A DNA stretch of 64,000 bases from a bacterium (GCA_023139105.1 JAGLOF010000091.1:10391-74390), one strand, 5' to 3'. Positions 27,867 through 44,583 are shown, numbered from the stretch's first letter. Numbers and translations: made by a program. The notes: generated by a model from the letters alone, not told the origin.

Positions 27867-30800
27867 ATGAAATGCGGATGGTTTTATCGGTTAAAATATT
27901 TAATAGCAGTATGTTTTTTGTTAGTACCAGTTATACTTTCGGCACAGCAAATATTTTCAAACGGTTTTGAATCCGGCACTTTCAGCCCTGAGTGGACAGA
28001 AGGCAGTGCTGGTGTAAAGACTATTATCAATACCGATTCATACACCGGCCAGTACTGTGTGAGTATGGAAAACTATTCAGGCACTAACTGCATATACACC
28101 AGCACTGCTCTATCAGTTACTGCCGGAAATACTTATACTATCAAAGTATGGTATAAATGTGCAGCAGACAGGCAAGCACGAGTTAATTTTTATGATAATT
28201 TAAACTATCGCAGCCATAGTAGTGCTTTCTTTAGCGGTACTGGCACGTGGACGCAGTTGGAGCATTCTTTTGTTGCTGAAACAGACTGCCAGCAGGTGAA
28301 AATTTTTCTTTATGGTCATTACGGCAGTGGGACAACTGCTGTGTTGTATGATGAAATTGAGATTTATGAAAATGATAACAGCACGCCCAGTTTGACGGTC
28401 ACTGATCCCAACGGGGGCGAAGCCTGGACAGCCGGGACAATCCAGACAATATCCTGGGTCAATGAGAATTTTACTGATACAGTGGCACTGGAATATACCA
28501 TTGATGGTGGTCAGTATTGGAATACCATTGTCAGTGGCTCCACCAATGATGGCACCCAGCATTGGCTTGTTCCCGATTCTGCGTCGTCCAACTGCCTGGT
28601 GCGAATTTATGATTCAGCAGATCAATCACCTGCTGATACCAGTGACGCTGTTTTCAGTATTGCTGCTCAACCGGTTTTGGTAGAGATCTTTGCTGATGGA
28701 TTTGAGAGCGGTGCTTTCGGCCCGGTCTGGACAGCGGGCAGTGGTGGTGTAAAGAGTGTCATCAGTACAGATTTTCATGCTGGACAGTACTGTGCCAGTA
28801 TGGATGCTCATACAGCAACCAGCTACATCCATTGTTCTACGCCACTGACTGTGACTCCTGGTAAAACTTACATCATCAGAGGATGGTATAAGTGTAGTGC
28901 CGATCGCCAGGCCCGGGTGAACCTATATGATAACCTGAACTATCGAAGCCACAACAGCCTGATGCTAGATGGCACCGGGGACTGGGAACCGCTGGAACAT
29001 TCATTTATAGCAGAGAATGACTGCCAGCAAGTAGAGGTTTTCCTTTATGGCCACAATGGTACAGGTAGCACACCCATTTTCTATGATGATATCCAAGTCC
29101 TGGAAGATGCCAGTACCATGCCCACCCTGACTGTAGCTATGCCCAATGGCGGTGAGGAGTGGACTGTAAACACCAGCATGAATATTGCCTGGTCCAGTGT
29201 AAATTTTACTGACAATGTGACGCTGGAGTATTCCATTGGTGGTGGCAGTTATTGGAATACCATTGTTAGCAACACCACCAATGATGACAACCATGATTGG
29301 ACTGTACCTGATTCGGTAACTACCAATTGCCTGGTGCGTATCTATGACACTGCAGATCAAAGTCCCTGTGATACCAGCAATGGCTCCTTCAGCATAGTGG
29401 CACAATCAGATTCAATACAGATTTTTTCCAATGGATTTGAAACAGGTACCTTTAGCCCGATCTGGACTGAAGGCAGCAACGGTACCAAGCTTGTGATAAA
29501 TACAGATTATCACACAGGTCAATACTGTGTGAGTATTGATCAATACAGTGGTACCAACTGCGTCTATACCTCTACGCAGCTTGACGTCACTGCGGGCCGG
29601 ACCTATACAGTCAAGGCATGGTATAAGTGTGATACTGGCCGTGATGCCAGGGTCAACTTTTATGACAATTTGAATTACAGAAGCCATTCCAGTGCATACT
29701 TCAATGGCACGGGCGCATGGACTCAGTTGGAACATTCATTTGTTGCCGAGTCTGATTGTCAGCAAGTTGAGTTTTTTCTTTATGGTCATTACGGCACCGG
29801 TACAACACCGGTGTTGTATGATGATGTGGAAATTTATGAAGTGTGGGAAGAAACCGATACAACAGCCTTGGTGCTCTATGCCTATGAACCCTTTGATAGT
29901 CTGAGCACCATTGATGAATTCGTTCGTATTCTGGGTCAAGTCAACAAGCCAGACGTTCCTGTGACGGTTAATGGCACAGCCATGACTGTTGACAGTACAG
30001 GACGATTCCAAGCCCAATTATCGCTTTCTCTGGGAAGCAACACCTTTGTCTTTAATGCCAACAATGGAGAGGCCACCATCAGCAGAGTGGTTTACAGAGA
30101 AGCCGCCGATCTGCCTCCTGATCCTGAAGATGTTGCACCACCGGTTGATAATACAGTTACTACAACAGTGACTAATTCAACCCGATTCCTCTATACGGGC
30201 ATTAATCCTATACAGACAGGCGTTGATACTTCGCAGATGGACCCTGTCAGGGCAGCTGTTGTGCGCGGTAAAGTAGTTACTGTTACCGGAGACCCCCTTC
30301 ATGGTGCCATTATGACCATCAAAGATTATCCTGAGTTTGGGCAGACCAAATCCAGAGAGGACGGCTGGTTTGATATGGCTGTGAATGGTGGTGACGATCT
30401 GACGGTGCATTATTCCCGGCAGGGGTATTTAGATGTACAACGCCGCTTCCATGTGGACTGGCAGGATTGGGCCGTTATGGATAGCGTTGCCATGATTCAA
30501 CTTGATACCCGAGTGACGGTGGTTGATTTTAGTGATACCATTCAGGTTGCCCGGGGCAATGTCGTGACAGATGATGATGGTGCGCGCCAGGCAACTATGA
30601 TTTTTAAGCAGGGTACGCAGGCGGAAATGGTGATGCCAGATGGCAGCAGGCAGGCTTTGGATGAATTGCACATCCGTGCCACTGAATATACGGTGGGCGA
30701 TATTGGTGTCGCGGCCATGCCCGCTATGCTGCCGCCCGAAAGCGGATACACCTACTGTGTTGAATTGACATGCGATGAAGCACTGAAAGCCGGTGCTACA

Positions 30801-33800
30801 GGGGTCGTATTTGACCAGCCTGTGCCGTTTTATGTGGAGAATTTTCTTGATTTTCCCGTGGGGTGCCGGGTGCCTGTGGGCTATTATGATAAAGAGAAGA
30901 AACAGTGGATCGCATTACCTGATGGATGGAATCTTGAAATCGTCAGTGTGAGTAACGGGGTTGCAAATATTGATGTTACCGGAGATCATCTCGCAGATAC
31001 TCCTGATACGTTGGCGATAGTCGGAATCGATTTGAATGAACGAAAATCGATTGCCGATCTGTATGATCCGGGGCAGTCTTTGTGGCGGGTGGAATTGAAT
31101 CATTTCTCCCCCATCGATTTGAACTTGCCCATTACTCGGTATGAGGAGAGAGTACCCAGTATAATTTTAGATGAGGCAAAATTGATCAGTGATGAAGACG
31201 AGTGTGAAGGGAGAGGTTCGATTATTAAGATTCAGAAACAAGTTCTTAAAGAGGTGGTGCCGGTGTCCGGTACAGGAATGGCGCTCAATTACATGAGCAA
31301 TAGAACACCGGATTACGCTTCGGCTCTCAATATCAAGCTGATTTCCGGTGAAGTTCCGCCTGAAGTGCTGAAGATCATGTTGAAGATTTCAGTGGCTGGC
31401 CGAGTCTTTGAGTATCAGTACCAGCCGCTGGCCAACCTGACACATGTGTTCATTTGGGACCGAAAAGACGCCTATGGACGCCTTATTCGGGGGGAGATGC
31501 CGGTCAACATCTCCATAGGATATGAGCAGTTCCAGCGCTATCTCACACGGAGGAATTTTGATCTGGGCACTTCGTTCGGTAATTTGGTCGTGCTAAGTTC
31601 TACTCTGGATGAGGGATCAAGCCAGATGGCATACACAATGATTGATACGACGCGTCAGCCGGTCATATCATACCGGAATTATGTGAGATATATCGGCGGT
31701 TATCAGCCTCCGGTACAGGATTTTGGCGGATGGACTCTGACTCCTCATCACTATTACAATCCCATCAGTAAAGTGGTACATTCGGGAAGTGGAGATAATA
31801 TTAATTCTTCGTTCAGTAAGAACAATTCTATCAATACGGAAATCGATCTCGATGATATTCAGTTGGTTGGCGGTTTATCTGGCTTGCCCAGAAATATCTG
31901 TCTTGGTCCCTATGGCAATTGGATCGCTCTGGTTGAATCAAGGCTGTATTTGTTATATAATAATTTCGCTACTTCGATCCATGATCAAATGGTTGGGGAT
32001 ATGTGTGCCGGGGCAGATGGGACGATCTTTGCGGTTGAGACCAGTAACCATCGAGTGATCAAGATTGACTCGGTAGGGACTGTTACGGCCATCGCCGGGA
32101 CTGGGGTGAGTGGTTATTCAGGTGATGGCGGGGCTGCGGTGAATAGTCAATTGAGCTGTCCTACAAACATTGCTGTCAACAAAGATGGAGCTATTTATAT
32201 CTCTGATTTTGGCAATCACTGTATACGCCGCATTGGTACAGAGGGCAACATTGAAACCATTGCAGGAACAGGGGAAATTGGATTTAGCGGTGATAGTGGT
32301 TATGCTCTGGATGCCAAAATTTTCGCTGGAGATCTGGCTGTGGGACCAGATGGCAGTCTGTTTATCGCCGATCCCATAACTTGTCGAATTCGAAGGATAA
32401 CTCCTGATGGCATCATTGATACCTATGCGGGCAATGGCGAGGCAGGATATGGCGCGAATGGCAGCATGGCTGCATCTGCGGAACTGTTCTTTCCGCTGTT
32501 TATTAATGTTGACGAGCGGGGCAATCTTTATATCTCAGATTTTGGAAACCATTGCATACGAAGAGTCGATGTCAATGGCGTGCTTAGCACAGTTGCCGGT
32601 TGCGATGGAGTATTCGATCCCAGACTGCTGTATGAAGAGTTGCTGGGTTTTCCCATACCGGCGGGAATGGACCTGTCGCTGACAGATATCTATTCTTATA
32701 CTGATCCGATTTCTGATATACTTCCCTTTTTGTTGTTTGAGCTTTATGAATTGGACATGAATTATTGCCCCGGCTTCAGGGGGGAGGGTATGAACCCTTT
32801 AAGAGCTCATTTATGTGCCGGAGGATTGGTCGATGCACCTGATGGTAGTCTTTACTTTGCCGATCCCCTGAATAGGCGCATCCGTCAAATCCAGTCGGCC
32901 TACCCTGTATTCAGCAATTCCGATTACAATGTTTCATCCCCTGATGGTGGTGAACTGTATGTCTTTGATCAGATGGGAACACACCTAAAGACTCTGGATG
33001 GGCTGACCGGCTCTGTAAAATATACATTCAACTATACGGACGGTCTGCTGAGTGAAATACTCGATCAGGACAGCCTGGTCACCCGGATTGAGCGCACTGA
33101 GTCCGGAGATGTGAGAATGATTTTGTCTCCCTTCGGCCATCGTACGATCTGCTCCCTCGATTCCAGTGGCTACCTGGTTTCGGTAACCAATCCCGGGATA
33201 GAGACTGTGCGTTTTGAATATACCAATGGGATGTTGATGACTGAAGAGACAGACCCCTGGGGAGGAGTCCATTGCTTCACTTACAATAATGAAGGAAAAC
33301 TGATCCGCGATGAAGACCCTGCCGGAGGATGGAAATCAATCACCAAAACCCGAACTCAATCAGGATATTCCATCGAGTATAAAACGGCCGAGGGTAGTAT
33401 CAAATCCTATGCGATTGAGGTGCAGGATGATCAAACGATTCGTATGACCAATGCCAATGCCACTGGAATAGCCACAGTGTCTCTGAAAAACCCCGATGGC
33501 TCGCAGTCGATCACTTATCCTGATGGTGTTAACATGTTCAAGTTGATGAAGCCCGATCCCCGCTACGGCATGCAGGCACCGTTGATTGATACATTGAGGA
33601 TCACCCTGCCTTCCGGGCTCCAGTCTGTCATGAGCCAGTCGCGAACCATTGACGTGATGTCCGGACTGGCCATCACCCAGATGACGGATACGTCAATTGT
33701 TAACAACAAGATCTCTGTCACCCAGTTTGACGGGAACCAGCATTTCTGGCGCACAATCTCTCCTGAAGGCAGACAGGCCTACGCATTCATCGATGAAAAG

Positions 33801-36068
33801 GGCCGCACTGTTCTGGACTCCATCCCCGGCCTGCACGGTGTACATTACACTTACAACAATGAAGGTTTCTTAACTGCCACCAGGCAGGCTGACAGGATCA
33901 CATCGTTCGCCTATGACACCCTGGGCCAGCTGGAAGCTGTAACCGATCCCATAGGCCGCACCAGCCATATGGCCTACGATTCTGTTGGTAGATTAACTCA
34001 ACAAACGCTGCCTGACGGCAGACAGATTGCCTACACCTACGACGCCAACGGTAATTTAACTTCACTCACACCCCCGGGAAGACCGGCTCATCTCTTCTCG
34101 CACACAGCCGTTAATCAAACAAGTCTCTATCAACCGCCTGAACTGCCAGATAGTCTCGGAACGACCTTCTACGAGTATAACCTTGACCGTCAGATCACCC
34201 GTACTATTCTGCCGGGTGGCGATACAATCCTTGTTAATTATGGGTATGAAGGTTGTGGCTGCGGGAGTATCGGGTCTCTGGCCCGCATCGGCTTTGACCG
34301 GGGATTTCAGTACTTTAAGTATGATTCAACCACCGGTCACTTACGCCATATTATTTCGCCAGAGCAGGATACACTGACCTATGCCTATGACGGCCGCCTG
34401 CCCTTATCTGTTAGCTGGACAGGCAGGATTAACGGTAGTGTCGGAGTGGATTATAATAACGATTTCAAAGTGACAGCTCAACGGGTGAATAATGGATACC
34501 AAGTCGGATTCGTCTATGATGCTGACGGGCTGCTAACTGCTGCAGGTGATCTGACTCTGGCCTATGACCCGGTTAATGGTATGCCTTTGGGAACACAGCT
34601 TGGCAACGTGACTACTGAAAATACGTTTACTGGGTATGGTGAATTAGCTCGTTTTGAGTCGAAATATAATCTTGACAATTTATTAACATTTGATTATTCA
34701 CTTGACTCTTTGGGCAGGATTAATCATATTAATGAAGTAACATTAAATGATACCAATGCTTACGTCTACGGTTATGATTTAACAGGCAGATTGGTCAACG
34801 TTTCAAGAAACGACACAGTTGTTTCTGCATACACCTACGATGACAACGGCAACCGGCTTTCTCACACCACACCTGATGGTACGGTTTACGGTGTTTACGA
34901 CGACCAGGATCGGCTTCTTTCTTATGGTGATGCTTCTTACGGCTACACTCCCAACGGTTCTTTGACTTACAAGGCCACTGGCACGGATACCACTTGGTAT
35001 CACTATGACTTGCTGGGTAACCTGATCTCTGTTGCCCTGCCAAATAGTGATTTTATTGAGTACATGATCGACGGGCAGAACCGGCGGATTGGGAAGCTGG
35101 TTAATGGGGTATTTAAGAAAGGGTGGTTGTATCAAAATCAACTTAGTCCTGTTGCTGAGTTGGATAGTCTTGGGAACATCGCTACACGTTTCGTTTATGG
35201 AACAAGAAGTAACGTGCCCAATTATATGTTAAAAGATGATCAGGTTTACAGAATAATATCTGATCATTTGGGCTCTGTCCGTCTGGTTGTTAACACAGGT
35301 ACCGGAGCAATTTTCCAGCAAATCGATTATGATGAGTTTGGAAATGTTCTCTGTAATGCCAATGAAGGTTTTCAACCCTTTGGTTATGCCGGTGGATTAA
35401 ATGATGAGCATACTCAGCTCGTTCGGTTTGGGGCAAGGGATTATGATGCCGGTGTTGGGCGGTGGATGAGTAAAGAACCTGCCAAGTTTGCTGGAGGATT
35501 AAACTTTTATTCTTATGTTAGTAACGATCCGATTAATTATAACGATCCAACAGGTCTTTATGCACTCAGAGTTGACTATGAGAACAAAAGGTTGTTCGCT
35601 GTTATCACAAATAGGGGCGAAACGCTCTGGAATCTTGCAAAAAATGTGAGTGGTAATGGTTCAAGGTGGTCTGAATTAGGAGTTTGCGAAAGTAATGCAA
35701 AAACCATACAAATTGGGGATGAATTTAATGTGACGGGACTGTTTCCTAGTAATGTCATAGCTAACATATTTTCTCAACATTCAAACGAATCAATAACTGC
35801 AGGATCTCAAGCAAATCCTACTCAAGGTTTAGCAAAAGCATATGAATATTTGGGGTATGCAGAAGTTGGATTACTGGGAGCCGGTTTTATAGGTGCAGGC
35901 AAACTTGCATTACTAGGAGGGACTGTAGATGGTTTGGTTATAGTCGGTGGTGGAGCAGCTGGATTGATCGGTGGAGGTGTATTTGTTGTTGTTGGTGTTG
36001 GCTTGGTCCTTATAAGTGCTGATTTACTTGAGGGTGGAGGGCTTAATCTATTTGGTTTAATTGAATAG
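27867..36068 (+). CDS. giant secreted teneurin-like RHS/YD-repeat polymorphic toxin (CBM-like x3, TTR-like, NHL, YD shell, RHS core, LysM-like + glycine-zipper C-terminal domain)
   Basis: RBS GAGAGGTGA and signal peptide ...VPVILSAQQ. Domains in order: 3 x GFE.G..W CBM4_9-like plus PNGGE.W Ig-like modules; a CarboxypepD_reg/TTR-like block (VVRGKVVTVTGDPLHGA); NHL repeats (GDGGAA..S.L..P..IAV...G.IYISD..NH.IRRI) at about 32.0-32.9 kb; many YD repeats (Y.YD..G.L) at about 33.0-35.1 kb; and an RHS core ending [14 protein letters not shown]...DPINYNDPTGL at 35544-35558. Confidence 0.95.
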   Translation: MKCGWFYRLKYLIAVCFLLVPVILSAQQIFSNGFESGTFSPEWTEGSAGVKTIINTDSYTGQYCVSMENYSGTNCIYTSTALSVTAGNTYTIKVWYKCAADRQARVNFYDNLNYRSHSSAFFSGTGTWTQLEHSFVAETDCQQVKIFLYGHYGSGTTAVLYDEIEIYENDNSTPSLTVTDPNGGEAWTAGTIQTISWVNENFTDTVALEYTIDGGQYWNTIVSGSTNDGTQHWLVPDSASSNCLVRIYDSADQSPADTSDAVFSIAAQPVLVEIFADGFESGAFGPVWTAGSGGVKSVISTDFHAGQYCASMDAHTATSYIHCSTPLTVTPGKTYIIRGWYKCSADRQARVNLYDNLNYRSHNSLMLDGTGDWEPLEHSFIAENDCQQVEVFLYGHNGTGSTPIFYDDIQVLEDASTMPTLTVAMPNGGEEWTVNTSMNIAWSSVNFTDNVTLEYSIGGGSYWNTIVSNTTNDDNHDWTVPDSVTTNCLVRIYDTADQSPCDTSNGSFSIVAQSDSIQIFSNGFETGTFSPIWTEGSNGTKLVINTDYHTGQYCVSIDQYSGTNCVYTSTQLDVTAGRTYTVKAWYKCDTGRDARVNFYDNLNYRSHSSAYFNGTGAWTQLEHSFVAESDCQQVEFFLYGHYGTGTTPVLYDDVEIYEVWEETDTTALVLYAYEPFDSLSTIDEFVRILGQVNKPDVPVTVNGTAMTVDSTGRFQAQLSLSLGSNTFVFNANNGEATISRVVYREAADLPPDPEDVAPPVDNTVTTTVTNSTRFLYTGINPIQTGVDTSQMDPVRAAVVRGKVVTVTGDPLHGAIMTIKDYPEFGQTKSREDGWFDMAVNGGDDLTVHYSRQGYLDVQRRFHVDWQDWAVMDSVAMIQLDTRVTVVDFSDTIQVARGNVVTDDDGARQATMIFKQGTQAEMVMPDGSRQALDELHIRATEYTVGDIGVAAMPAMLPPESGYTYCVELTCDEALKAGATGVVFDQPVPFYVENFLDFPVGCRVPVGYYDKEKKQWIALPDGWNLEIVSVSNGVANIDVTGDHLADTPDTLAIVGIDLNERKSIADLYDPGQSLWRVELNHFSPIDLNLPITRYEERVPSIILDEAKLISDEDECEGRGSIIKIQKQVLKEVVPVSGTGMALNYMSNRTPDYASALNIKLISGEVPPEVLKIMLKISVAGRVFEYQYQPLANLTHVFIWDRKDAYGRLIRGEMPVNISIGYEQFQRYLTRRNFDLGTSFGNLVVLSSTLDEGSSQMAYTMIDTTRQPVISYRNYVRYIGGYQPPVQDFGGWTLTPHHYYNPISKVVHSGSGDNINSSFSKNNSINTEIDLDDIQLVGGLSGLPRNICLGPYGNWIALVESRLYLLYNNFATSIHDQMVGDMCAGADGTIFAVETSNHRVIKIDSVGTVTAIAGTGVSGYSGDGGAAVNSQLSCPTNIAVNKDGAIYISDFGNHCIRRIGTEGNIETIAGTGEIGFSGDSGYALDAKIFAGDLAVGPDGSLFIADPITCRIRRITPDGIIDTYAGNGEAGYGANGSMAASAELFFPLFINVDERGNLYISDFGNHCIRRVDVNGVLSTVAGCDGVFDPRLLYEELLGFPIPAGMDLSLTDIYSYTDPISDILPFLLFELYELDMNYCPGFRGEGMNPLRAHLCAGGLVDAPDGSLYFADPLNRRIRQIQSAYPVFSNSDYNVSSPDGGELYVFDQMGTHLKTLDGLTGSVKYTFNYTDGLLSEILDQDSLVTRIERTESGDVRMILSPFGHRTICSLDSSGYLVSVTNPGIETVRFEYTNGMLMTEETDPWGGVHCFTYNNEGKLIRDEDPAGGWKSITKTRTQSGYSIEYKTAEGSIKSYAIEVQDDQTIRMTNANATGIATVSLKNPDGSQSITYPDGVNMFKLMKPDPRYGMQAPLIDTLRITLPSGLQSVMSQSRTIDVMSGLAITQMTDTSIVNNKISVTQFDGNQHFWRTISPEGRQAYAFIDEKGRTVLDSIPGLHGVHYTYNNEGFLTATRQADRITSFAYDTLGQLEAVTDPIGRTSHMAYDSVGRLTQQTLPDGRQIAYTYDANGNLTSLTPPGRPAHLFSHTAVNQTSLYQPPELPDSLGTTFYEYNLDRQITRTILPGGDTILVNYGYEGCGCGSIGSLARIGFDRGFQYFKYDSTTGHLRHIISPEQDTLTYAYDGRLPLSVSWTGRINGSVGVDYNNDFKVTAQRVNNGYQVGFVYDADGLLTAAGDLTLAYDPVNGMPLGTQLGNVTTENTFTGYGELARFESKYNLDNLLTFDYSLDSLGRINHINEVTLNDTNAYVYGYDLTGRLVNVSRNDTVVSAYTYDDNGNRLSHTTPDGTVYGVYDDQDRLLSYGDASYGYTPNGSLTYKATGTDTTWYHYDLLGNLISVALPNSDFIEYMIDGQNRRIGKLVNGVFKKGWLYQNQLSPVAELDSLGNIATRFVYGTRSNVPNYMLKDDQVYRIISDHLGSVRLVVNTGTGAIFQQIDYDEFGNVLCNANEGFQPFGYAGGLNDEHTQLVRFGARDYDAGVGRWMSKEPAKFAGGLNFYSYVSNDPINYNDPTGLYALRVDYENKRLFAVITNRGETLWNLAKNVSGNGSRWSELGVCESNAKTIQIGDEFNVTGLFPSNVIANIFSQHSNESITAGSQANPTQGLAKAYEYLGYAEVGLLGAGFIGAGKLALLGGTVDGLVIVGGGAAGLIGGGVFVVVGVGLVLISADLLEGGGLNLFGLIE
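27951..29850 (+). repeat. in-frame tandem repeat, period exactly 735 bp (2.6 copies) inside the RHS gene
   Basis: Unit starts are IFSNGFESG at 27951, IFADGFESG at 28686 and IFSNGFETG at 29421. Each unit is a CBM-like plus Ig-like module. The third copy holds only the CBM-like half. Confidence 0.85.
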
Positions 36069-36093
36069 TTTATATTGATTTATGGAGAAATAA

Positions 36094-36456
36094 ATGATTT
36101 ATTTTGGCTTTGGATTACTAATAATCACGCAAGTTGTTGGAGTAATTTTGATTAAATCCAGCAAAATTAAACTAACTAAAACTATATCTACTCATAATAA
36201 AAGGAAGGCTCTTCAATTGAATGCTTTTTCAAAAAAGTATATTAGGCTTCTAGGTGCCTTGTTGTTGCTGTTACCATTTGTTTTGGCGATTACTCTTGCA
36301 CAAGTTGTTGATAAAAATACAAAGCATATGTTAATCATCTTTTTCTTTTTTATTGTTTTCATTTTAGTGGATTTTATTGTATACTATTTAATTATTGAAG
36401 GATTAACTAGAGAAAAGATTGATAATGATGAGCTAAATAGGTCATGCAATTTGTAA
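36094..36456 (+). CDS. putative cognate immunity protein (3-TM membrane protein)
   Basis: Starts 25 nt after the RHS stop, preceded by GGAG. It has three hydrophobic helices (FGFGLLIITQVVGVILI, LLGALLLLLPFVLAITLAQVV, MLIIFFFFIVFILVDFIVYYLII). The position is the canonical immunity slot. Confidence 0.6.
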   Translation: MIYFGFGLLIITQVVGVILIKSSKIKLTKTISTHNKRKALQLNAFSKKYIRLLGALLLLLPFVLAITLAQVVDKNTKHMLIIFFFFIVFILVDFIVYYLIIEGLTREKIDNDELNRSCNL

Positions 36457-36503
36457 GCTGTACAGAGTGTGCAGACAAGCCTATAGCTTCCTAAGGATTC
36501 TGC

Positions 36504-36709
36504 ACATCTTGGCTTCTAATGGTCAAACACCGGGTATGCCCTCATGCTGCCCGGTGTTCTTTAAAAAATAATCCATTGCCTCTTGTCATATATGGCAATT
36601 GACCTAAAACTAATTAATAATAAAATAAACAGCATATCTAAGATGTCGGCTACACTCCCAACGGTACTCAGGTTTCTTATTTGACGGCCCAAACCGGCGC
36701 ATCGGCACG
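36504..36709 (+). repeat. type-1 cassette junction, copy A (copy B at 38136-38340)
   Basis: About 200 bp are conserved between 36504-36709 and 38136-38340. The block includes the hairpin AACACCGGG-N15-CCCGGTGTT (36526-36558 / 38157-38189) and an RHS stub (GYTPNGTQV.Y). Confidence 0.8.
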
Positions 36710-37498
36710 TTGGTAAATGGTGTATTCAAAAAAGGCTGGCTCTACCAGGATCAGCTCAACCCCGTGGCAGAACTGGACAGCCTGGGTAATATCTCAGCAC
36801 GGTTTGTATACGGTTCAAAAGGGCATGTGCCTGATTACATGATCAAGAATGGTGTAACCTATCGTTATATCACAGACCATCTCGGTTCAGTACGGTTGGT
36901 CGTCAACTCTGTTTCTGGTCTTGTTGTTCAGCAAATTGCCTATGATGAGTTCGGTTATGTGCTGGTTAATACCAATGCTGAGTTTCAACCATTTGGTTAT
37001 GCTGGTGGATTGTTGGATGCGCATACTAAACTGGTTCGGTTTGGTGCCAGGGATTATGATGCTGGCGTTGGCAGGTGGACGGCTAAGGATCCGATTGGAT
37101 TTGAAGGTGGGGATGTAAATCTGTTTTCCTACTGTATCGTTGATCCGTTAAACAATATTGATTCGAATGGGATGTTGTTTTGGGGTTTGATAAATGCAGG
37201 TGAACAATGGGGGCAGGAGGCAGCTGAGTATTATGCGAGAGTAGTTGCCGATCCTTGTGCTTCTGATGCAGCAAAGGCTGGAGCCTGGGTAGGTGGTTTG
37301 TTTGCTTCTTTGTGGACACCAAGTACAAGTGATATTACGCTAACCGTTTTGACTACTGCTTATGCGTGGAGAGTCATTGGCCCATATTCAACGAGAGGTT
37401 TGCCACGATGGTTGCAGCGTATTCGAAAATATATTCGATTTGATCGACCACATCATGATAAACCAGGGTATCATTGGGATGGGAATTGGTTTAAATAA
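36710..37498 (+). CDS. orphan RHS C-terminal fragment 1 (core tail + unknown toxin domain)
   Basis: The first 155 aa are homologous to main-gene residues around [13 protein letters not shown]...[14 protein letters not shown]...DPLNNIDSNGM. A unique 107-aa tail (37175-37495) follows. There is no ATG start, and the upstream stub is frameshifted by a 4-nt deletion relative to copy B. Confidence 0.75.
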   Translation: MVNGVFKKGWLYQDQLNPVAELDSLGNISARFVYGSKGHVPDYMIKNGVTYRYITDHLGSVRLVVNSVSGLVVQQIAYDEFGYVLVNTNAEFQPFGYAGGLLDAHTKLVRFGARDYDAGVGRWTAKDPIGFEGGDVNLFSYCIVDPLNNIDSNGMLFWGLINAGEQWGQEAAEYYARVVADPCASDAAKAGAWVGGLFASLWTPSTSDITLTVLTTAYAWRVIGPYSTRGLPRWLQRIRKYIRFDRPHHDKPGYHWDGNWFK

Positions 37499-37514
37499 AT
37501 ACAGGAGAAGGTAA

Positions 37515-38084
37515 ATGGATAAAATACAAAGCACGATTACTAATTTGGTGACAAAAGTATATCAAACGTCTAGCTACCCTACAGCTGAAATGATTATAAC
37601 TGATGAAGTGATGATTCGTAATATCGTAAGTGGTATTAATGAAAAGAGCCGATATATTGCTGAATATAAAAAATGTTCGGATTGTTTCTATTGTTACCAG
37701 ATTGCTATATCTGTTGATTTACCAATAATTCCGAATGCCCATGAGAAAGAGAGGATGAGGGACTGGATAAAGAAATACGGTCAAAATTATTGGCAGATGT
37801 ACATAGCCATCAGTAAGCTTGGGAAGCTTGCTTTTTACTACTGGACAAAATATGGTTTAACACTATTCAAATTTAAAACTGTAAAACATAATTATTATCC
37901 GCCTAACAATGATTATAAAAAAGTACAGTCGCTAATTGATTCTATTTTAAGTAATTTTGATATCGAAGTCCTTGAAGCAAAATTAGTGACAGAAGAATAT
38001 AAAGTTAAATATGATGGTAAAATTATAGGATATGATCCAAAACCCAATTTAGTAAAATTGTTGTTTACTGAAGAACTTCATTGA
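37515..38084 (+). CDS. putative immunity protein for orphan toxin 1 (cytoplasmic)
   Basis: ATG 16 nt after the toxin stop, with AGGAGAAGG as RBS. 189 aa, no signal peptide or TM. No recognised family. Confidence 0.55.
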   Translation: MDKIQSTITNLVTKVYQTSSYPTAEMIITDEVMIRNIVSGINEKSRYIAEYKKCSDCFYCYQIAISVDLPIIPNAHEKERMRDWIKKYGQNYWQMYIAISKLGKLAFYYWTKYGLTLFKFKTVKHNYYPPNNDYKKVQSLIDSILSNFDIEVLEAKLVTEEYKVKYDGKIIGYDPKPNLVKLLFTEELH

Positions 38085-38469
38085 TGTTTTTAGCCAGGGT
38101 GCGTTGATAAAGCCACCGCTTTATAAAGGCTCCGGACATCTTGTTTTCAATGATCAAACACCGGGTATGTCCTCATGCTGCCCGGTGTTCTTTAAAAACA
38201 ATCCATTGCCTCTGTCTTATATGGCAATTGATTTAAAACCAATTAACACAATCGACTAATGAAATAAATAGCATATTTAAGATGCAGGCTACACCCCCAA
38301 CGGCACTCAGGTTACTTATTTAATTGATGCTCAGAACCGGCGCATCGGCAAACTAGTAAATGGTGTATTCAAAAAAGGCTGGCTCTATCAGGATCAGCTC
38401 AACCCAGTTGCCGAACTTGACAGTCTGGGCAACATCACCGCTCGTTTTGTATACGGATCTAAAGGCCAT

Positions 38470-39231
38470 GTGCCCGATTACATGATCAAGGATGGTGTGC
38501 GGTATCGTTTTGTCACAGACCATTTGGGTTCGGTGCGGCTGGTGCTCAACGCCACCACCGGTGCCGTTGCGCAACGTTTGGATTATGATGCTTTTGGCCA
38601 AGTACTGCTCAATAGCAATCCTGACTTTCAGCCGTTTGGGTATGCGGGTTGCCTCAGCGATACTCACACGGGGTTGATGCGCTTTGGTGCCAGGGATTAT
38701 GATGCTGGTGTTGGGCGGTGGACGGCTAAAGAGCCGCTAGGATTTAATGGCAGTAATAATTTCTACTCTTACTGTCATAATGATCCATTGAATCTGGTTG
38801 ATCCAGGTGGTGACCTTGCGTTTATCCCCATATTGCTGGGTGCCTGGGCTATTGCTGAATTTGGTTTGTCTGTGTGGGATATATTTGATGCTGGTAGGAC
38901 TTTACTTGATCCTTGTGCTAGTTGGGGTGATAAAGGTATCACAACATTGGGGGCTTTTGCAGGTTTAATATTACCTGGTGGTGGCTGGGATGATTTGGCA
39001 AAAGGGGGAGTGAAATTAACAAGGACAATGCTATCTAAGTCACATGTAATTGCGAAAGGAAGTAAAATAAGACAAGTAAATTCCCTTGTTAGTAAGTACG
39101 GTGGTAAGTCTAGTAAGTGGGTGAAAAAAAGTAGTGAAGCAATGTTTGTTAATGGTCGGATGATAGAAGTTCATTGGTATGAACACCCAGGTATTGGAAG
39201 AGTAATGGAAAAATTGAAACCTTTGGAGTGA
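38470..39231 (+). CDS. orphan RHS C-terminal fragment 2 (core tail + unknown toxin domain)
   Basis: The frame is open and RHS-homologous from 38281 ([37 protein letters not shown]...) with no ATG. The first possible start is GTG 38470. The core ends DPLNLVDPGGD, followed by a unique 138-aa tail (38815-39228). Confidence 0.75.
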   Translation: MPDYMIKDGVRYRFVTDHLGSVRLVLNATTGAVAQRLDYDAFGQVLLNSNPDFQPFGYAGCLSDTHTGLMRFGARDYDAGVGRWTAKEPLGFNGSNNFYSYCHNDPLNLVDPGGDLAFIPILLGAWAIAEFGLSVWDIFDAGRTLLDPCASWGDKGITTLGAFAGLILPGGGWDDLAKGGVKLTRTMLSKSHVIAKGSKIRQVNSLVSKYGGKSSKWVKKSSEAMFVNGRMIEVHWYEHPGIGRVMEKLKPLE

Positions 39232-39234
39232 ACG

Positions 39235-39567
39235 ATGAAAGTTATACTAAAGCCAAAGTATGCAGATAAAAAGGAAGTAAATGATCTTAGTGCATCGGTT
39301 TTATATTTGGTTATTGGTCTAGAAGCGGATGATTATCGATTGATAAATGATAATCGGCGGCCATATTTGTATGATCATAAATTATTTGATTTAATTGATG
39401 AAAAGGAACCAAGTAACTGGTGTAATGAATATGGGGATGATGGTGAGAGGTACGCTTATCCTCCAGAACTAAATAAATCAGGTTTTTTTGAAGATTATTT
39501 TGATGGAAATAAAAAAGCATTAAAAATTTTTAATGATTATTTGAAACAGATAAAACTTTTAGTTTGA
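39235..39567 (+). CDS. putative immunity protein for orphan toxin 2 (small, acidic, cytoplasmic)
   Basis: ATG 3 nt after the toxin stop. 110 aa, D/E/Y-rich, no signal peptide. Confidence 0.55.
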   Translation: MKVILKPKYADKKEVNDLSASVLYLVIGLEADDYRLINDNRRPYLYDHKLFDLIDEKEPSNWCNEYGDDGERYAYPPELNKSGFFEDYFDGNKKALKIFNDYLKQIKLLV

Positions 39568-39758
39568 TTTTTTATTTGATATGAAATTGATAATGTATCG
39601 ATGTCATTCAAATGGAATGCTTCAATTAATTTGATCGGGTAGGCATGTTTGAAAAATAACTTTACACAAACGGCTCCCACACCTAAATTGGAGTTTAATA
39701 AGTAGCCATGTAGGCCGGGGTTTACCCTGGCCTACCTAACAAATAATGATTGCTATTT

Positions 39759-39790
39759 ACAGACATACCTGCGTGTATGTCTGTTTTTTA
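39759..39790 (+). terminator. intrinsic terminator closing cassette 2
   Basis: ACAGACATAC-CTGCGT-GTATGTCTGT is a 10-bp stem followed by TTTTT. Confidence 0.75.
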
Positions 39791-40041
39791 TGTGATGTTT
39801 TGTTGTAGGTAATTGGGTGTATTACAATTTATTGTTGTAATGCTAGGATAGGCCTCACACTGCAGAGCTGTGTGGATGTGTTTTCCGCAATGACACCATC
39901 AACGGTTAGTTACGCTAATTATAGCAATGGCAACTGCGTTAGTTGTACTAATCAGAATGGTACGGTTACCGAGTCTACGATGACCAGGATCGGCTGCTTT
40001 CTTATGGTAATGCTTCTTACGGCTACACTCCTAACGGTTCT

Positions 40042-41040
40042 TTGACGTATAAAGCAGTTGGCACAGACACAACTTTTTACCATTACGACCTGCTTGGTAA
40101 CCTGATCAGCGTTGCCCTGCCAAATAGCGATTTCATAGAGTACATGATTGACGGGCAGAACCGCCGCATCGGTACGTTGGTTAACGGTATTTTTAAAAAA
40201 GGCTGGCTTTACCAGGATCAGCTCAATCCCGTGGCAGAACTTGACAGCCTTGGCAATATTTCTACCCGGTTTGTGTACGGATCAAAAGGGCATGTGCCGG
40301 ATTACATGGTTAAAGATGGCATAACTTATCGCTATATCACCGATCATCTCGGTTCTGTGAGATTGGTAATTAACACCACCACTGGTGCCGTTGCTCAGTG
40401 CATGAAATATGATGAGTTCGGTAATGTACTGGTGAATACCAATCCTGACTTCCAGCCATTTGGGTATGCGGGTGGCCTCACTGATACTCACACAAGCTTG
40501 GTGCGTTTTGGTGCCAGGGATTATGATGCCGGTGTAGGGCGGTGGACGGCTAAGGATCCGATTGGGTTTGCAAGTCAATCAGGAAATTTATATAGTTATG
40601 TAATGTCGGATCCAATGAATTGGATTGATCCAAGTGGTTTGTCAAAACTTATATTTGACCGTAGTAGAGGAAAACTCGAAATATGGCAAGATAATTGGGT
40701 TGGCCCACCGTTGATTTTTGCCGCAGGAAATTTTACGGTAAATCAAGATGGGGATCCTTTGCAACCGGAGAGTTTTGGTCCAACTCCAAATGGGCTTTTC
40801 GATCTTGGAGAAATGATAGAAACAGGTTTGGATCCATGCTCTTCTTTTGGATCAGGTTTTTTTAGAATTAATCTTCCAAGTAAAGAATCTGGTGAACATC
40901 GTACGGGTGTTGGTTTGCATGCAGGCAGGAGAGATTCAGGTGGTGTAAAGCATCGTACGCTTGGTTGTATACGAACAACTGAAGAGGCTTTAGCAGTTCT
41001 TAGGAATGATCTGCCAACTCAAATATTAATTCAGGAGTAA
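40042..41040 (+). CDS. orphan RHS C-terminal fragment 3 with Tlde1/DUF2778-like L,D-transpeptidase-fold toxin domain
   Basis: RHS homology is recognisable from about 39880 (degenerate, with stops), and the frame is open from 39952. The core ends [11 protein letters not shown]. The 132-aa tail (40642-41037) carries [11 protein letters not shown]...GFFRINLP...[24 protein letters not shown], i.e. H-x15-C with T-x-G-C as in YkuD/Tlde1 catalytic sites. Confidence 0.75.
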
Positions 41041-41679
41041 ATGATGAAATTATATTTGGTTATTATTTGTATAATAACAGGGATGGTTTTTCAAGAAGTG
41101 GAATCTTCTACTTTTCAGGATAATGTTGTTCTGAAGAATATTTTCACTGATACTTCAGTAGATACTACTCAATATACAAGAATGCTAAATAAAAGCACAG
41201 TTTACACACAAAATGTGAAAAATTTCTTGGTTGAATATTATTTATTTATGAGAGACCCTGGAAAAGAAAGAATTAAGTATATTAATGCGTTTCCAGAAGA
41301 TTATGATAGTATTATGCACTTAGTATATGAAAAAATTGAGCTAGAAAGATTTTCGCCTAGTTTTTTATTTTCTTTTAAGGTAATAGGAGATGCTGCGATA
41401 TCTGGAGACTGTAATGCAGCAAGGAAGGTTGTAAGAGTATATGTGAATTCTGATGGTGTTGTTGCAGATCTTATGTTCGGATATCTAGTAACTCTTTTTA
41501 AAACCAATTTGGATTTAATATTGAATACAATTTGTGAATTAAATGAGAGGGATACTAAAAAAATCTGCTTATCTCTGAAATACCTCAATGTAGAGGACAA
41601 AGATATTATTAGAAAGAATGTACTAAAACATACAGAGTCTTGGTGTCATAATTTGGATGCTTTAATGGGAAGTCTATAA
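41041..41679 (+). CDS. putative periplasmic immunity protein for orphan toxin 3
   Basis: The ATG immediately follows the toxin TAA. Signal peptide MMKLYLVIICIITGMVFQEVES. 212 aa. Confidence 0.6.
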   Translation: MMKLYLVIICIITGMVFQEVESSTFQDNVVLKNIFTDTSVDTTQYTRMLNKSTVYTQNVKNFLVEYYLFMRDPGKERIKYINAFPEDYDSIMHLVYEKIELERFSPSFLFSFKVIGDAAISGDCNAARKVVRVYVNSDGVVADLMFGYLVTLFKTNLDLILNTICELNERDTKKICLSLKYLNVEDKDIIRKNVLKHTESWCHNLDALMGSL

Positions 41680-41819
41680 GAATTAGCCAAGTAGATATTA
41701 TGTTTGAAAAGTGACTTTGTATAAACGGCTCCCACACCCTAAATTCCTTTTGTGAAGAAGAAAAATAAGGGAAGGGCAAGTATTAATGCCGGCAAAGGCA
41801 AAGGATATAGCAATCACAA

Positions 41820-41851
41820 CAGGCATGCCATTCGGCATGTCTGGTTTTTTT
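41820..41851 (+). terminator. intrinsic terminator closing cassette 3
   Basis: CAGGCATGCC-ATTC-GGCATGTCTG is a 10-bp stem (one G-U pair) followed by GTTTTTTT. It is similar in sequence to the terminator at 39759. Confidence 0.75.
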
Positions 41852-42004
41852 GTGCGCCCGGCCGGTCACGCTCACTAGGTGGTGGGAGTCCACTATACGC
41901 CCGACAAGGGGAAGTATTAGCCGAGCGGCAAGGTTATCATCGTGAGTTGATTGCTGAAGGAAGGTGAAGGCAAAGCACTGGTCTGACGAACAGAAATCGT
42001 ATAT

Positions 42005-43222
42005 GAGGCCCTGGGCAGACTGGGATTTGTAATCGACCCTATCGGCCGCAGCAGCCACATGGCCTACGATTCTGTCGGTAGAGTAACTCAACAAACGCTG
42101 CCTGATGGCAGACAGATCGCCTACACCTACGATGCCAATGGCAATTTAACTTCACTCACACCCCCGGGAAGACCGGCTCATCTCTTCTCGCATACCGCCG
42201 TTAATCAAACAAGTCTCTATCAACCGCCTGAACTGCCTGACAGTCTCGGAACGACCTTCTACGAATATAACCTTGACCGTCAGATCACCCGTACTATTCT
42301 GCCGGGTGGCGATACAATCCTTGTTAATTATAGGTATGAAGGTTGTGGCTGCGGCAGTATCGGTTCAGTTGCACGTATCGGATTTGACCGTGGTTTTCAG
42401 TATTTCAAGTATGATACAACCACTGGCCATTTAAAATACATCATTTCTGCTGATAACGATTCCCTTGCTTTTGCCTATGATGGCCGTTTGCCCTTGTCTG
42501 TTGCCTGGACAGGGATGATAAACGGCAATGTGTCGGTAACCTATAATAATGATTTCCGGGTGACCTCCCAGAGTGTGAATAACGGGAATACGGTTGGATT
42601 CGCCTATGATGATGACGGTTTACTCACGGCTGCTGGTGATCTCTCTCTGGCCTATGATCCGGTTAATGGTATGCCTTTGGGAACACAGCTTGGTAACGTA
42701 AGTACTGAAAATACGTTTACCGGGTATGGAGAATTGGCCCGTTTTGAGTCTAAATATAAATTTGATAATTTATTCACAACTGATTATTCACTTGACTCTC
42801 TCGGTCGAATTAATCATATTAATGAAGTTACATTAAACGATACCAATGCTTACGCCTACGGTTATGATTTAACAGGCAGACTAATCAACGTTTCAAGAAA
42901 CGACACGGTTGTTTCTGCATACACCTACGATGACAACGGCAACCGGCTTTCTCACACTACACTTGACGGTACGGTTTACGGAGTTTATGACAATCAGGAT
43001 CGGCTTCTTTCTTATGGTGATGCTTTTTACGGCTACACTCCTAACGGTTCTTTGACTTACAAAGCAGTTGCCTCAGACACAACTTTTTATCAGTATGATC
43101 TGCTGGCCAATCTGATCAGTGTTAATCTGCCAGATGGTACGGTTGTATCATATATGATCGACGGGCAGAACCGGCGCATCGGTACGTTGGTTAACGGTAA
43201 TTTCAAGAAAGGCTGGCAGTAA
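42005..43222 (+). pseudogene. truncated duplicate of the RHS YD-shell segment (no N-terminus, no core end, no toxin)
   Basis: Colinear with main-gene 33913-35130, with only scattered substitutions over the first ~450 bp compared by eye. The ORF 42059..43222 ends ...[16 protein letters not shown], exactly at the KKGW junction where the orphan cassettes begin. Confidence 0.8.
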
Positions 43223-43352
43223 TGTGTCAGCTTGTTTTTTATCATGATCATCCATCTATCATGGGTATATGTGAGGCGTGTTTGTGAATCATACTTTGTG
43301 TGATAGCTCAAATAAATTTATTATATTCCATTAAGTATAAGGAATATGTCTT

Positions 43353-43550
43353 ATGACGGATTACAAATATGCTGAGCTAACTGGTAAGATCATTGGTTGT
43401 GCAATGCGTGTGCATAGTGCTTTGGGCAATGGATTTCAGGAAGTGATTTATCAACGCGCGTTGGCCATTGAACTTGACAAAGTAAAATTGCTATTTGATC
43501 GTGAATTGGAAATGCCCCTCAATTATGGTGAGTGCGAGATTGGGACATGA
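43353..43550 (+). pseudogene. GxxExxY-family protein fragment (truncated)
   Basis: The N-terminus LTGKIIGCAMRVHSALGNGFQEVIYQRALAIEL matches the GxxExxY family. A TGA falls before the conserved R.DFLV block, and family similarity is lost soon after. Confidence 0.6.
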
Positions 43551-43670
43551 CGTGTAGATTTTCTAGTATTGATTCATTTTAATCGAAAAAAAAATACCCA
43601 CTCGATTCGCCATAGAGCCTTTTTTCAATTATGAGAAATCCACTTAAAAATTCATTGACATTAATGGAGG

Positions 43671-44273
43671 GTGATTATGGTGCAACATATGGATATTCAA
43701 AAACCTGACAACTATTCTGACAAAGATTATAAGGCATTCCGTTTCAAGTTGGGTTCACAATATACTTCAAAAAAGGAACTTGAAGAGATATGCATGACAT
43801 TAGCACATTTACCTACTAAAGAAGCCAGTGAGATACTTGATGAGTTTAAAAAAACCGAGAGAGGGGGGGATGTTGAGTGGCTGGATTGTGCAATTGAAGA
43901 AAATAAGTTTTTGTTGTTATCTCCGGAGAATGAACAGGAAAGGCGGGATTTTATCGCAATAAAGTTGATTGGTGAGATCTTTGATAAAATTGTAGAACTT
44001 CAGTGTCAAACTGATGGGTATCAGTTATGTATTATCAAGAATGAAATTCGACTCCAGGCATTGGGGAAATTACAATCAGAAAATCAAATTGATCATGAAA
44101 TCGCCGCTCTTAATGAAGTTATGAAGTGTAATAAACAGAAGATAAACGATATTCAGCAAAGTATTCTTCTTGAGGAAAAAATTGAAGACGAAATCAGGGC
44201 ATCTATTGTTTCAGAAAAATATAAGAAGCTTGACCCTATGGATTTGGTTGATTTTCATCATGATGGGGAGTGA
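43671..44273 (+). CDS. hypothetical protein (acidic, helical)
   Basis: A 200-aa ORF with reasonable coding appearance. No motif recognised. It lies between RHS remnants and could be a stranded immunity gene. Confidence 0.45.
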   Translation: MIMVQHMDIQKPDNYSDKDYKAFRFKLGSQYTSKKELEEICMTLAHLPTKEASEILDEFKKTERGGDVEWLDCAIEENKFLLLSPENEQERRDFIAIKLIGEIFDKIVELQCQTDGYQLCIIKNEIRLQALGKLQSENQIDHEIAALNEVMKCNKQKINDIQQSILLEEKIEDEIRASIVSEKYKKLDPMDLVDFHHDGE

Positions 44274-44583
44274 ATCTTAGCGCCGGGTGTCCTGACCATT
44301 GATATTGGCGTGTGGCACGGCCCTTTGGGCCGTGTTTACACGTTGGTTGCGTCACAGGTGGCCGGATTAAATGATGAGCTATGATACAAGACAATACTTT
44401 TTTGATTTTAACGGGCTGGCGTAAACACATCAGCCTGTTTTCTATCATGGTCATTTATAACGCAAGTTTGTGAATTATACTTTCTTTGATAGTTCAATTA
44501 TATTTAAAACTTGCAAAAAACTATAAATAGCGGTATTTTAGTACAGGAATTTAGATTAACTACTGTACTAAAGGGTGGTTATT

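Follow-up and report, generated by a model that had tools for sequence, protein, structure and literature searches.

The DNA analysed here, referred to below as the window, is a 64,000-nucleotide stretch of a bacterial metagenome contig (GCA_023139105.1, JAGLOF010000091.1:10391-74390; one strand, 5' to 3'). It contains a long gene of the teneurin-like kind, the main gene, and downstream of it, between positions 36457 and 43222, an array of truncated copies that carry different C-terminal tips. The main gene encodes a 2733-amino-acid protein that starts with a signal peptide, by which it is predicted to be exported, followed by three repeats with CBM_4_9 domains. These repeats are tandem copies of approximately 245 amino acids (28116-29840; 735-nucleotide period, 64-73% nucleotide identity), with one CBM_4_9 domain each. 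Pfam then places TTR_TEN1-4 (PF25020, residues 793-876), FN-plug (PF24329, 1154-1220), TEN_NHL (PF25021, approximately 1417-1468) and TEN_YD-shell (PF25023, 1685-2537) in this order, the last at E = 8e-34, and RHS_repeat matches the same open reading frame (ORF) at E = 7e-23. The presence of the teneurin domain set in order identifies the main gene as a bacterial teneurin-like protein (TLP) of the RHS/YD polymorphic-toxin kind, as a preceding annotation made from the DNA alone (the sequence-only reading) had proposed. The main tip begins at DPTGL (nucleotide 35544), a boundary of the canonical DPxGL form. By eye this tip consists of a LysM-like segment and a glycine-rich hydrophobic tail, neither of them called by Pfam; locus L025 holds a tip that is 51% identical to it. 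The gene imm0 follows after 25 nucleotides, and its product has only a weak FxsA-like match in Pfam. No link to a type VI secretion system (T6SS) was seen: Pfam found no PAAR match in the main protein, and no VgrG, Hcp or other T6SS genes were present among the flanking ORFs scanned (15.2-27.0 and 43.3-45.7 kb).

Downstream of imm0 lie three orphan cassettes and a truncated, tip-less shell copy (Table 1). All of these pieces had been described in the sequence-only reading and all were recovered by blastn against the main gene, at E-values from 2e-36 to 0, far too low for chance matches. The core of orphan 1 (36683-37092) aligns with main-gene positions 35070-35479 at 69% identity (E = 1e-44), that of orphan 2 (38332-38735) with 35076-35479 at 68% (E = 2e-36), and that of orphan 3 (39957-40559) with 34876-35479 at 74% (E = 4e-101). 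The shell copy (42002-43216) aligns with 33912-35126 at 85% (E = 0). Each orphan core runs into a boundary, a tip and a small downstream ORF (imm1 to imm3), the tip-to-ORF gaps being 16, 3 and 0 nucleotides compared with 25 in the main gene. The boundary is canonical in orphan 3 (DPSGL), as in the main gene, and orphans 1 and 2 have degenerate variants at the aligned position (DSNGM and DPGGD). The expected combination of a DPxG-type boundary, a private tip and a tightly coupled ORF was thus borne out, with one exception: in all-against-all blastp the four tips were mutually unrelated except for a short stretch of linker, DPC[AS]S (E = 0.005-0.04). The four downstream ORFs were unrelated to one another by the same comparison. 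It had also been proposed that each cassette starts inside one conserved core block, and this holds only in part. Orphan 3 begins approximately 65 codons upstream of the NRRIG block, with decayed core in front of it, and the 5' edge of orphan 1 (36645-36682) is frameshifted relative to orphan 2. The shell copy, for its part, sets in near 41990, joined to a 5' fragment of a group II intron.

Table 1. Features of the main gene and the downstream array, in window coordinates (SD, Shine-Dalgarno-like site)
Feature	Coordinates	Strand	Description
Main gene	27867..36068	+	2733-aa secreted teneurin-like polymorphic toxin; Pfam domains; SD GAGAGGTG and ATG
imm0	36094..36456	+	120-aa multi-pass membrane protein, presumed immunity for main tip (function inferred from position); SD GGAGA
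Junction element A, copy 1 (after imm0)	36486..36640	+	10-bp-stem hairpin at ~36527-36557 without U-tract, second small hairpin, AT-rich spacer
Orphan 1 open frame	36629..37498	+	in-frame core homology from 36683; boundary DSNGM at 37160
imm1	37515..38084	+	189-aa ORF, 16 nt after orphan 1; SD AGGAGAAGG; no family match
Junction element A, copy 2 (after imm1)	38118..38280	+	hairpin at ~38158-38188
Orphan 2 open frame	38281..39231	+	core homology right after TAA; boundary DPGGD at 38800
imm2	39235..39567	+	110-aa ORF, 3 nt after orphan 2; SD GGAG
Junction element B, copy 1 (after imm2)	39645..39792	+	46-nt block 39645-39689, GC hairpin, strong intrinsic terminator 39759-39784 with T-run
Decayed core remnant	39885..39951	+	~70 nt with several stops, 5' of orphan 3
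Orphan 3 open frame	39952..41040	+	well-conserved core from 39957; boundary DPSGL at 40627
imm3	41041..41679	+	212-aa ORF, 0 nt after orphan 3; signal-like N-terminal segment; SD AGGAG
Junction element B, copy 2 (after imm3)	41700..41851	+	46-nt block 41700-41745, strong terminator 41820-41843 with T-run
Group II intron 5' fragment	41853..42000	+	~150 nt; starts GTGCG directly after imm3 terminator T-run; truncated where shell homology begins
Tip-less shell fragment	41987..43222	+	411-codon open frame, cut inside FKKGW block; stop and terminator-like hairpin 43210-43233

The tips are lower in GC than the core, and the three tip frames, the shell frame and all immunity ORFs are uninterrupted. 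The orphan 1 tip consists of a DPCAS linker and a His-rich tail of approximately 45 amino acids; a word-indexed protein search gave three short matches with only the linker in common. The orphan 2 tip combines a linker of approximately 70 amino acids, which also occurs just past the shell in proteins of 2000-2300 amino acids, with a putative toxin domain of similar length (~70 amino acids). The latter is found at the extreme C-terminus of PT-HINT proteins, LysM proteins and 2466-amino-acid TcdB/SpvB/RHS proteins as well, and is therefore taken to be a bona fide, unnamed polymorphic-toxin domain. For the orphan 3 tip the word-indexed search returned one match. This tip has a weak similarity to YkuD (L,D-transpeptidase; E = 2e-4, below the Pfam cutoff) and contains an LHAG...GCIR His/Cys motif; the signal-like N-terminus of imm3 would tentatively fit a periplasmic target. 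Apart from this sub-threshold match, no curated Pfam toxin or Imm family was found for the tips and immunity ORFs at relaxed E-values. A PDB sequence search with the orphan 2 and orphan 3 tips returned nothing significant, and an AlphaFold2 model of the orphan 3 tip, built on a two-sequence alignment, was unusable (mean confidence, pLDDT, 38.5).

Main and orphan cores are 68-74% identical, with saturated synonymous sites (proportion of synonymous differences, pS, 0.80-0.85; non-synonymous, pN, 0.18-0.21). Between orphan cores the synonymous divergence (dS) is approximately 1.2 and the dN/dS ratio (omega) is 0.12-0.14. Exact matches to the main gene reach no more than 19 nucleotides in orphan 1, 16 in orphan 2 and 22 in orphan 3. 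Saturation at synonymous sites together with low pN indicates that the copies diverged for a long time as functional genes, and hence that they were imported rather than duplicated in place.

Identity along the array is mosaic (permutation tests, p <= 0.012). Between the main gene and the shell copy it is 92-100% at 33970-34240, 65-73% at 34300-34500 and 82-97% at 34510-34930, and approximately 72% thereafter; dS in these blocks is 0.24, saturated, 0.38 and 0.89, respectively. For orphans 1 and 2, identity is approximately 90% in the junction element and over the initial ~150 nucleotides of core, and drops to 55-70% beyond. This pattern argues that past recombination built the array. The orphan 3-imm3 cassette recurs in another metagenome (locus L024) at 80% nucleotide identity, in a non-first position and with different neighbours. 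In this comparison core dS is 1.46 and tip dS 0.42, so that core and tip histories are decoupled; omega of the tip is 0.13, and imm3 is 63% identical with a dN/dS of 0.26. In L024 (2509-3533) the orphan 3 homolog is frameshifted between FQPFGYAGG and DPSGL, with a tip that is still 90% identical at the protein level; the frameshift reflects recent decay or an error in sequencing.

The main gene and all four immunity ORFs have an ATG with a Shine-Dalgarno-like site at normal distance (Table 1). The orphan frames, which were delimited from stop to stop, each open directly behind a TAA, and the shell frame opens at 41987; every in-frame ATG, GTG or TTG before the boundary was checked for a Shine-Dalgarno site at working distance. 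None was found for any such codon in the three orphans or the shell frame. The claim that the cassettes have neither an ATG nor a ribosome-binding site of their own therefore stands as far as a start with a Shine-Dalgarno site is concerned. It does not stand for ATGs as such, since in-frame internal ones exist; the pre-boundary starts in the orphans are mostly internal core codons, including the conserved Met of the YM(I/V)K motif. With no start signal at their 5' ends the orphan toxin frames are most likely not translated. The immunity genes probably are, given their own ATG and Shine-Dalgarno site, and the suggestion that they may be expressed agrees with these predicted start signals.

Every module in the array is closed by a hairpin or a terminator, and two kinds of non-coding junction element are repeated. 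The two copies of element A, after imm0 and imm1, are 87-90% identical over approximately 150 nucleotides, which is above the identity of the adjacent coding DNA. Element A also holds a conserved mini-ORF of 13 codons (ATG at 36643 and 38282) that is out of frame with the orphan. Element B, after imm2 and imm3, has a 46-nucleotide block with the core AAACGGCTCCCACACC upstream of a strong terminator. No other copy of the element A hairpin or of the 46-nucleotide block was found in the window or in approximately 100 related loci, and no non-coding DNA was conserved with other loci. Each orphan resembles an old operon 3' end that was moved together with its terminator. As the hairpins after imm0 and imm1 have no U-tract, read-through from the main operon is possible; it could reach imm1 and imm2, which are possibly expressed in this way, and probably not orphan 3-imm3.

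Directly behind the imm3 terminator lies a short piece of a group II intron, which matches Rfam RF02001 at 41936-42116 with 50.9 bits (gathering score 32). Near 42010 the high-confidence half of the alignment gives way to the shell homology, and intron and shell overlap at their junction by a few bases (TATGA...CCCTGGGC). The GTGCG at 41853 fits the 5' GUGYG consensus and is placed just 3' of the intrinsic terminator at 41820-41843. Such a site is the typical target of terminator-seeking bacterial group II introns. The fragment is the sole Rfam match at E <= 1 across the array; no other intron match was found at E <= 1 in 36000-44700, or at the gathering score across the window. Rfam found neither catalytic domains V/VI nor a reverse transcriptase gene in the window, and the piece is therefore a dead fragment. 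Alternative splicing that would join the main gene to downstream exons was considered and ruled out, the intron having no catalytic domains.

We read the locus, with a probability of roughly 0.72, as a polymorphic-toxin locus of the TLP (YD-shell/RHS) type whose 3' end has been rebuilt several times, and whose array functions mainly as an archive of immunity genes and a reservoir of toxins that is exchanged slowly, and not as a ready switch. The active unit would be the 2733-amino-acid secreted shell protein with its encapsulated C-terminal tip, together with imm0. Each orphan would be a former or imported module in which a core-end fragment and a tip are followed by an immunity gene and closed by a 3' hairpin or terminator. 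Judged from the anatomy and the divergence, modules of distant alleles would have recombined into the locus and left the older tips downstream, that is, by C-terminal displacement. The shell fragment would be the remnant of another allele, joined by illegitimate recombination to the group II intron behind the imm3 terminator. On this account the orphan toxins would be silent, and the expressed immunity genes would protect against neighbours that deploy the corresponding tips. The divergence of the copies, the mosaic identity and the re-use of a cassette in L024 match the C-terminal displacement picture of Jackson 2009 (PMC2935791).

Several observations weigh against this account. The orphan frames are fully intact over 289-362 codons, and the decay upstream of orphan 3 ends sharply at the open frame; both could mean that the orphans are translated. 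With a strong terminator after imm2, the orphan 3-imm3 cassette would need a promoter of its own, and none was identified in a sigma-70 scan. The immunity role of all four small ORFs is assigned by position, none of them having an Imm family match. Part of the mosaic signal may stem from uneven constraint on the protein, and the events that built the array may have followed more than one order, with modules arriving singly or as a block.

The alternative that survives best, and which we still consider unlikely, is an active toxin switch in which the orphans form a standing library and homologous recombination within the locus regularly swaps tips. The sequence-only reading had presented the array as a classic substrate for such switching. 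The architecture is the same as in the Rhs and CdiA orphan systems, the tips are intact, and the mosaic identity shows that recombination has occurred in these cores. The FKKGW block in particular combines a local identity peak, a 32-nucleotide exact repeat between orphans 1 and 2 and the cut site of the shell copy. What speaks against a regular switch is the divergence described above. In enterobacteria the core regions of orphan and main genes are always the same, and exchange is considered to need very high identity (Jackson 2009, PMC2935791); the switching model depends on such identical cores. The only good recombination partner of the main gene in the array is the tip-less shell copy, with a 66-nucleotide exact match and tracts of more than 95% identity. 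A crossover between these two would delete the intervening 8 kb, tips included, and would not install a new tip. The identity requirements of homologous recombination make cores of 68-74% identity poor RecA substrates. At this identity, and with exact matches of at most 22 nucleotides, RecA-mediated re-attachment of tips is possible in principle and should be rare. The claim of a ready switching substrate thus did not hold up against these values. Site-specific recombination of the shufflon or integron type was rejected, there being no recombinase among the ORFs scanned at 15.2-27.0 and 43.3-45.7 kb.

A second alternative, to which we give somewhat less credence, is that the orphans are internally expressed modules, with a promoter in the core end and a non-canonical start, acting as toxin-antitoxin (TA)-like addiction modules. 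There is a precedent in Salmonella, where an rhs orphan that behaves as a TA-like module is transcribed from an internal promoter, P2, located 5' of DPxGL, and begins with a CTG codon (Starsta 2020, PMC7043789). The long intact frames, the abrupt onset of conservation where the orphan 3 frame opens and the tip omega of 0.13 between two copies that are both in the orphan state would fit this explanation. Promoter-like hexamers are found near the core end of orphan 2 (38674-38703) and orphan 3 (40567-40596). However, the sigma-70 scan gave 27 sites where 27.9 were expected in shuffled sequence, that is, no excess, and the promoter-like sites are not conserved across copies. No in-frame start with a Shine-Dalgarno site exists in the orphans, although the neighbouring genes use such sites. 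In addition, the L024 copy of orphan 3 is frameshifted in its core, and the low omega may date from the time when the tip was attached to full-length genes.

The reading as archive and reservoir also has to be set against a third possibility, which we regard as improbable, that the whole array including the immunity genes is inert debris, i.e. decaying pseudogene remnants. The decayed 5' edges (the frameshift in orphan 1 and the stops upstream of orphan 3), the presence of a tip-less shell fragment and an intron fragment, and the lack of family annotation for the immunity ORFs all point in this direction. Against this, the tip, shell and immunity frames are uninterrupted, the immunity ORFs keep their Shine-Dalgarno sites and ATGs, and both imm3 and the orphan 3 tip are under purifying selection in the comparison with L024.

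Finally, an assembly chimera, in which tips from several co-existing strains were wrongly joined behind one main gene, is hardly credible. The source is a metagenome with repeats within one locus, all three assemblies considered here derive from the same sample, and the orphan 1 cassette is flanked by the 32-nucleotide exact repeat, so that contigs built at k=31 do not prove its presence in every genome of the population. Nevertheless, the ENA metagenome contig from which the window is taken (95.7 kb) carries the full array. The contig of the NCBI metagenome-assembled genome from the same BioSample (75.2 kb) encodes the same proteins, and those of their accession numbers that were retrieved agree with this gene order (MCK5147773 for the main gene, then those ending in 774, 778, 780 and, for the shell copy, 781). 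Logan contigs of run SRR13892605 (L107, L002 and L105) cover 34906-36742, 36715-38385 and 38358-42172 at 100% identity. They break only at the repeat common to orphans 1 and 2; each passage from an immunity gene over its spacer into the following orphan is thus contained in a contig that was built independently. The longest exact repeats are 32 nucleotides among the orphans and 66 nucleotides between the main gene and the shell copy; by their sequence such repeats appear far too diverged to collapse in assembly. Each orphan, moreover, has its own non-coding 5' junction, unlike strain variants of a single gene. With the junctions reproduced in three assemblies of one sample a chimera is unlikely, and the artefact that the sequence-only reading had named as a possible refutation fails on the same evidence.

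Core-end profile scans gave 21 loci in genome records and 76 in metagenomes. The genome records belong to Melioribacteraceae, Calditrichaceae, Nitrospirae, Gemmatimonadota, Bacteroidetes, Thermodesulfobacteriota/Deltaproteobacteria, KSB1 and Kangiella. Of the 42 related loci in which 3 kb or more follow the first match, 25 have at least two same-strand copies of the core end, and up to seven are present. In most of the extra copies the frame opens within approximately 90 codons 5' of the homology, and in some 290-500 codons 5' of it. The full-length genes of three such loci (L009, L014 and L037) are teneurin-like by Pfam, and within those arrays the first copy is likewise 67-90% identical to the orphans. 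A far-reaching extension of our preferred reading, which we offer as doubtful, is that arrays in TLP loci are not libraries for switching but immunity archives, formed as entire modules were imported one after another from alleles that are very distant. The junction elements would then act as the right-hand homology arm that, together with the FKKGW block, allows exchange of units without a dedicated recombinase.

On the comparisons that follow, the layout is in our analysis one already known, namely the displaced-tip array of a polymorphic-toxin locus, and ordinary for such loci. Across all major bacterial lineages, polymorphic-toxin loci typically carry arrays of cassettes with adjacent immunity genes, at a median of one active toxin to three cassettes (Zhang 2012, PMC3482391). 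Our locus follows this template, with an active toxin, then cassettes with immunity genes, and a 1:3 ratio that matches exactly. Nothing essential differs; no curated Pfam toxin or Imm family matches the four tips or immunity proteins. The novelty of lineage suggested by the sequence-only reading was accordingly overstated, such arrays being typical of all major lineages and frequent in the teneurin-like family. As in enterobacterial rhs loci (PMC2935791) and the Rhs/CdiA orphan modules (Poole 2011, PMC3150448), a full-length YD gene is followed by tandem 5'-truncated core fragments, each with a different tip, lower in GC than the core, after a DPxG-type boundary and a small downstream ORF, and core and tip are decoupled. 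Unlike the enterobacterial rhs loci, the core fragments here are 68-80% identical instead of identical, and the modules end in a hairpin or terminator, two pairs of them with conserved non-coding junction elements. The setting differs too, with no T6SS context, export predicted through a signal peptide, and teneurin-type TTR, FN-plug and NHL domains in the main gene. The bacterial TLP effector-immunity pairs of Raoelijaona 2026 (PMC13018210) share the domain superfold by Pfam, the variable tip after DPxG and the small gene directly downstream. Unlike these pairs, our locus, like 25 of the 42 related loci, has an array of further tips behind the pair; the words 'orphan', 'cassette' and 'recombination' are absent from the text of that study. 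The Salmonella rhs orphan (PMC7043789) resembles the cassettes described here in that its tip and immunity gene follow a conserved core end, within which an internal promoter could lie hidden. It differs in that no conserved promoter and no start linked to a Shine-Dalgarno site was found in our cassettes.

The genes flanking the locus are unrelated to it and include a response regulator, a Por_Secre_tail protein, an MCP and an AAA ATPase. The host is a diderm, with TonB-dependent receptor and Omp85 genes and proteins with sorting domains of the type IX secretion system (T9SS) kind. The nearest named YchF proteins, approximately 60% identical, are from Desulfobacterota. The closest available relative (L101, 500-11029; YchF 87% identical) shows synteny with the window between 56257 and 46000, where YchF ends. 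Beyond YchF it has Peptidase_M6 and other genes in place of the toxin locus, and the TLP locus is absent from it. The locus therefore lies in a variable region. Outside the array we also observed an 86-nucleotide direct repeat (43255-43340 and 44441-44526; 73% identity, 1186 nucleotides apart) with an internal TCTATCA...TGATAG inverted repeat. Its copies precede a truncated PDDEXK_3 (GxxExxY-type) ORF (43353-43550) and an AAA_14/DUF4143 ATPase gene (44575-45723); the repeat could act as a promoter or leader common to the two, or mark the border of a small mobile unit. The window further contains a tRNA-Sec gene (2376-2475; anticodon TCA, Rfam 61.5 bits), and the organism therefore probably uses selenoproteins.

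The locus represents an incremental refinement of a well-known system and not a new mechanism. It extends the orphan-tip architecture to the recently characterised bacterial TLPs, in which arrays are frequent across many phyla, a point absent from PMC13018210. It also provides a clear counter-example to the view that orphan tips stand ready for recombination. As the shared core has saturated synonymous sites, the array more plausibly owes its selective value to the immunity genes. If the doubtful extension to archives with homology arms were true, it would add a general, undescribed layer to the bacterial TLP family.

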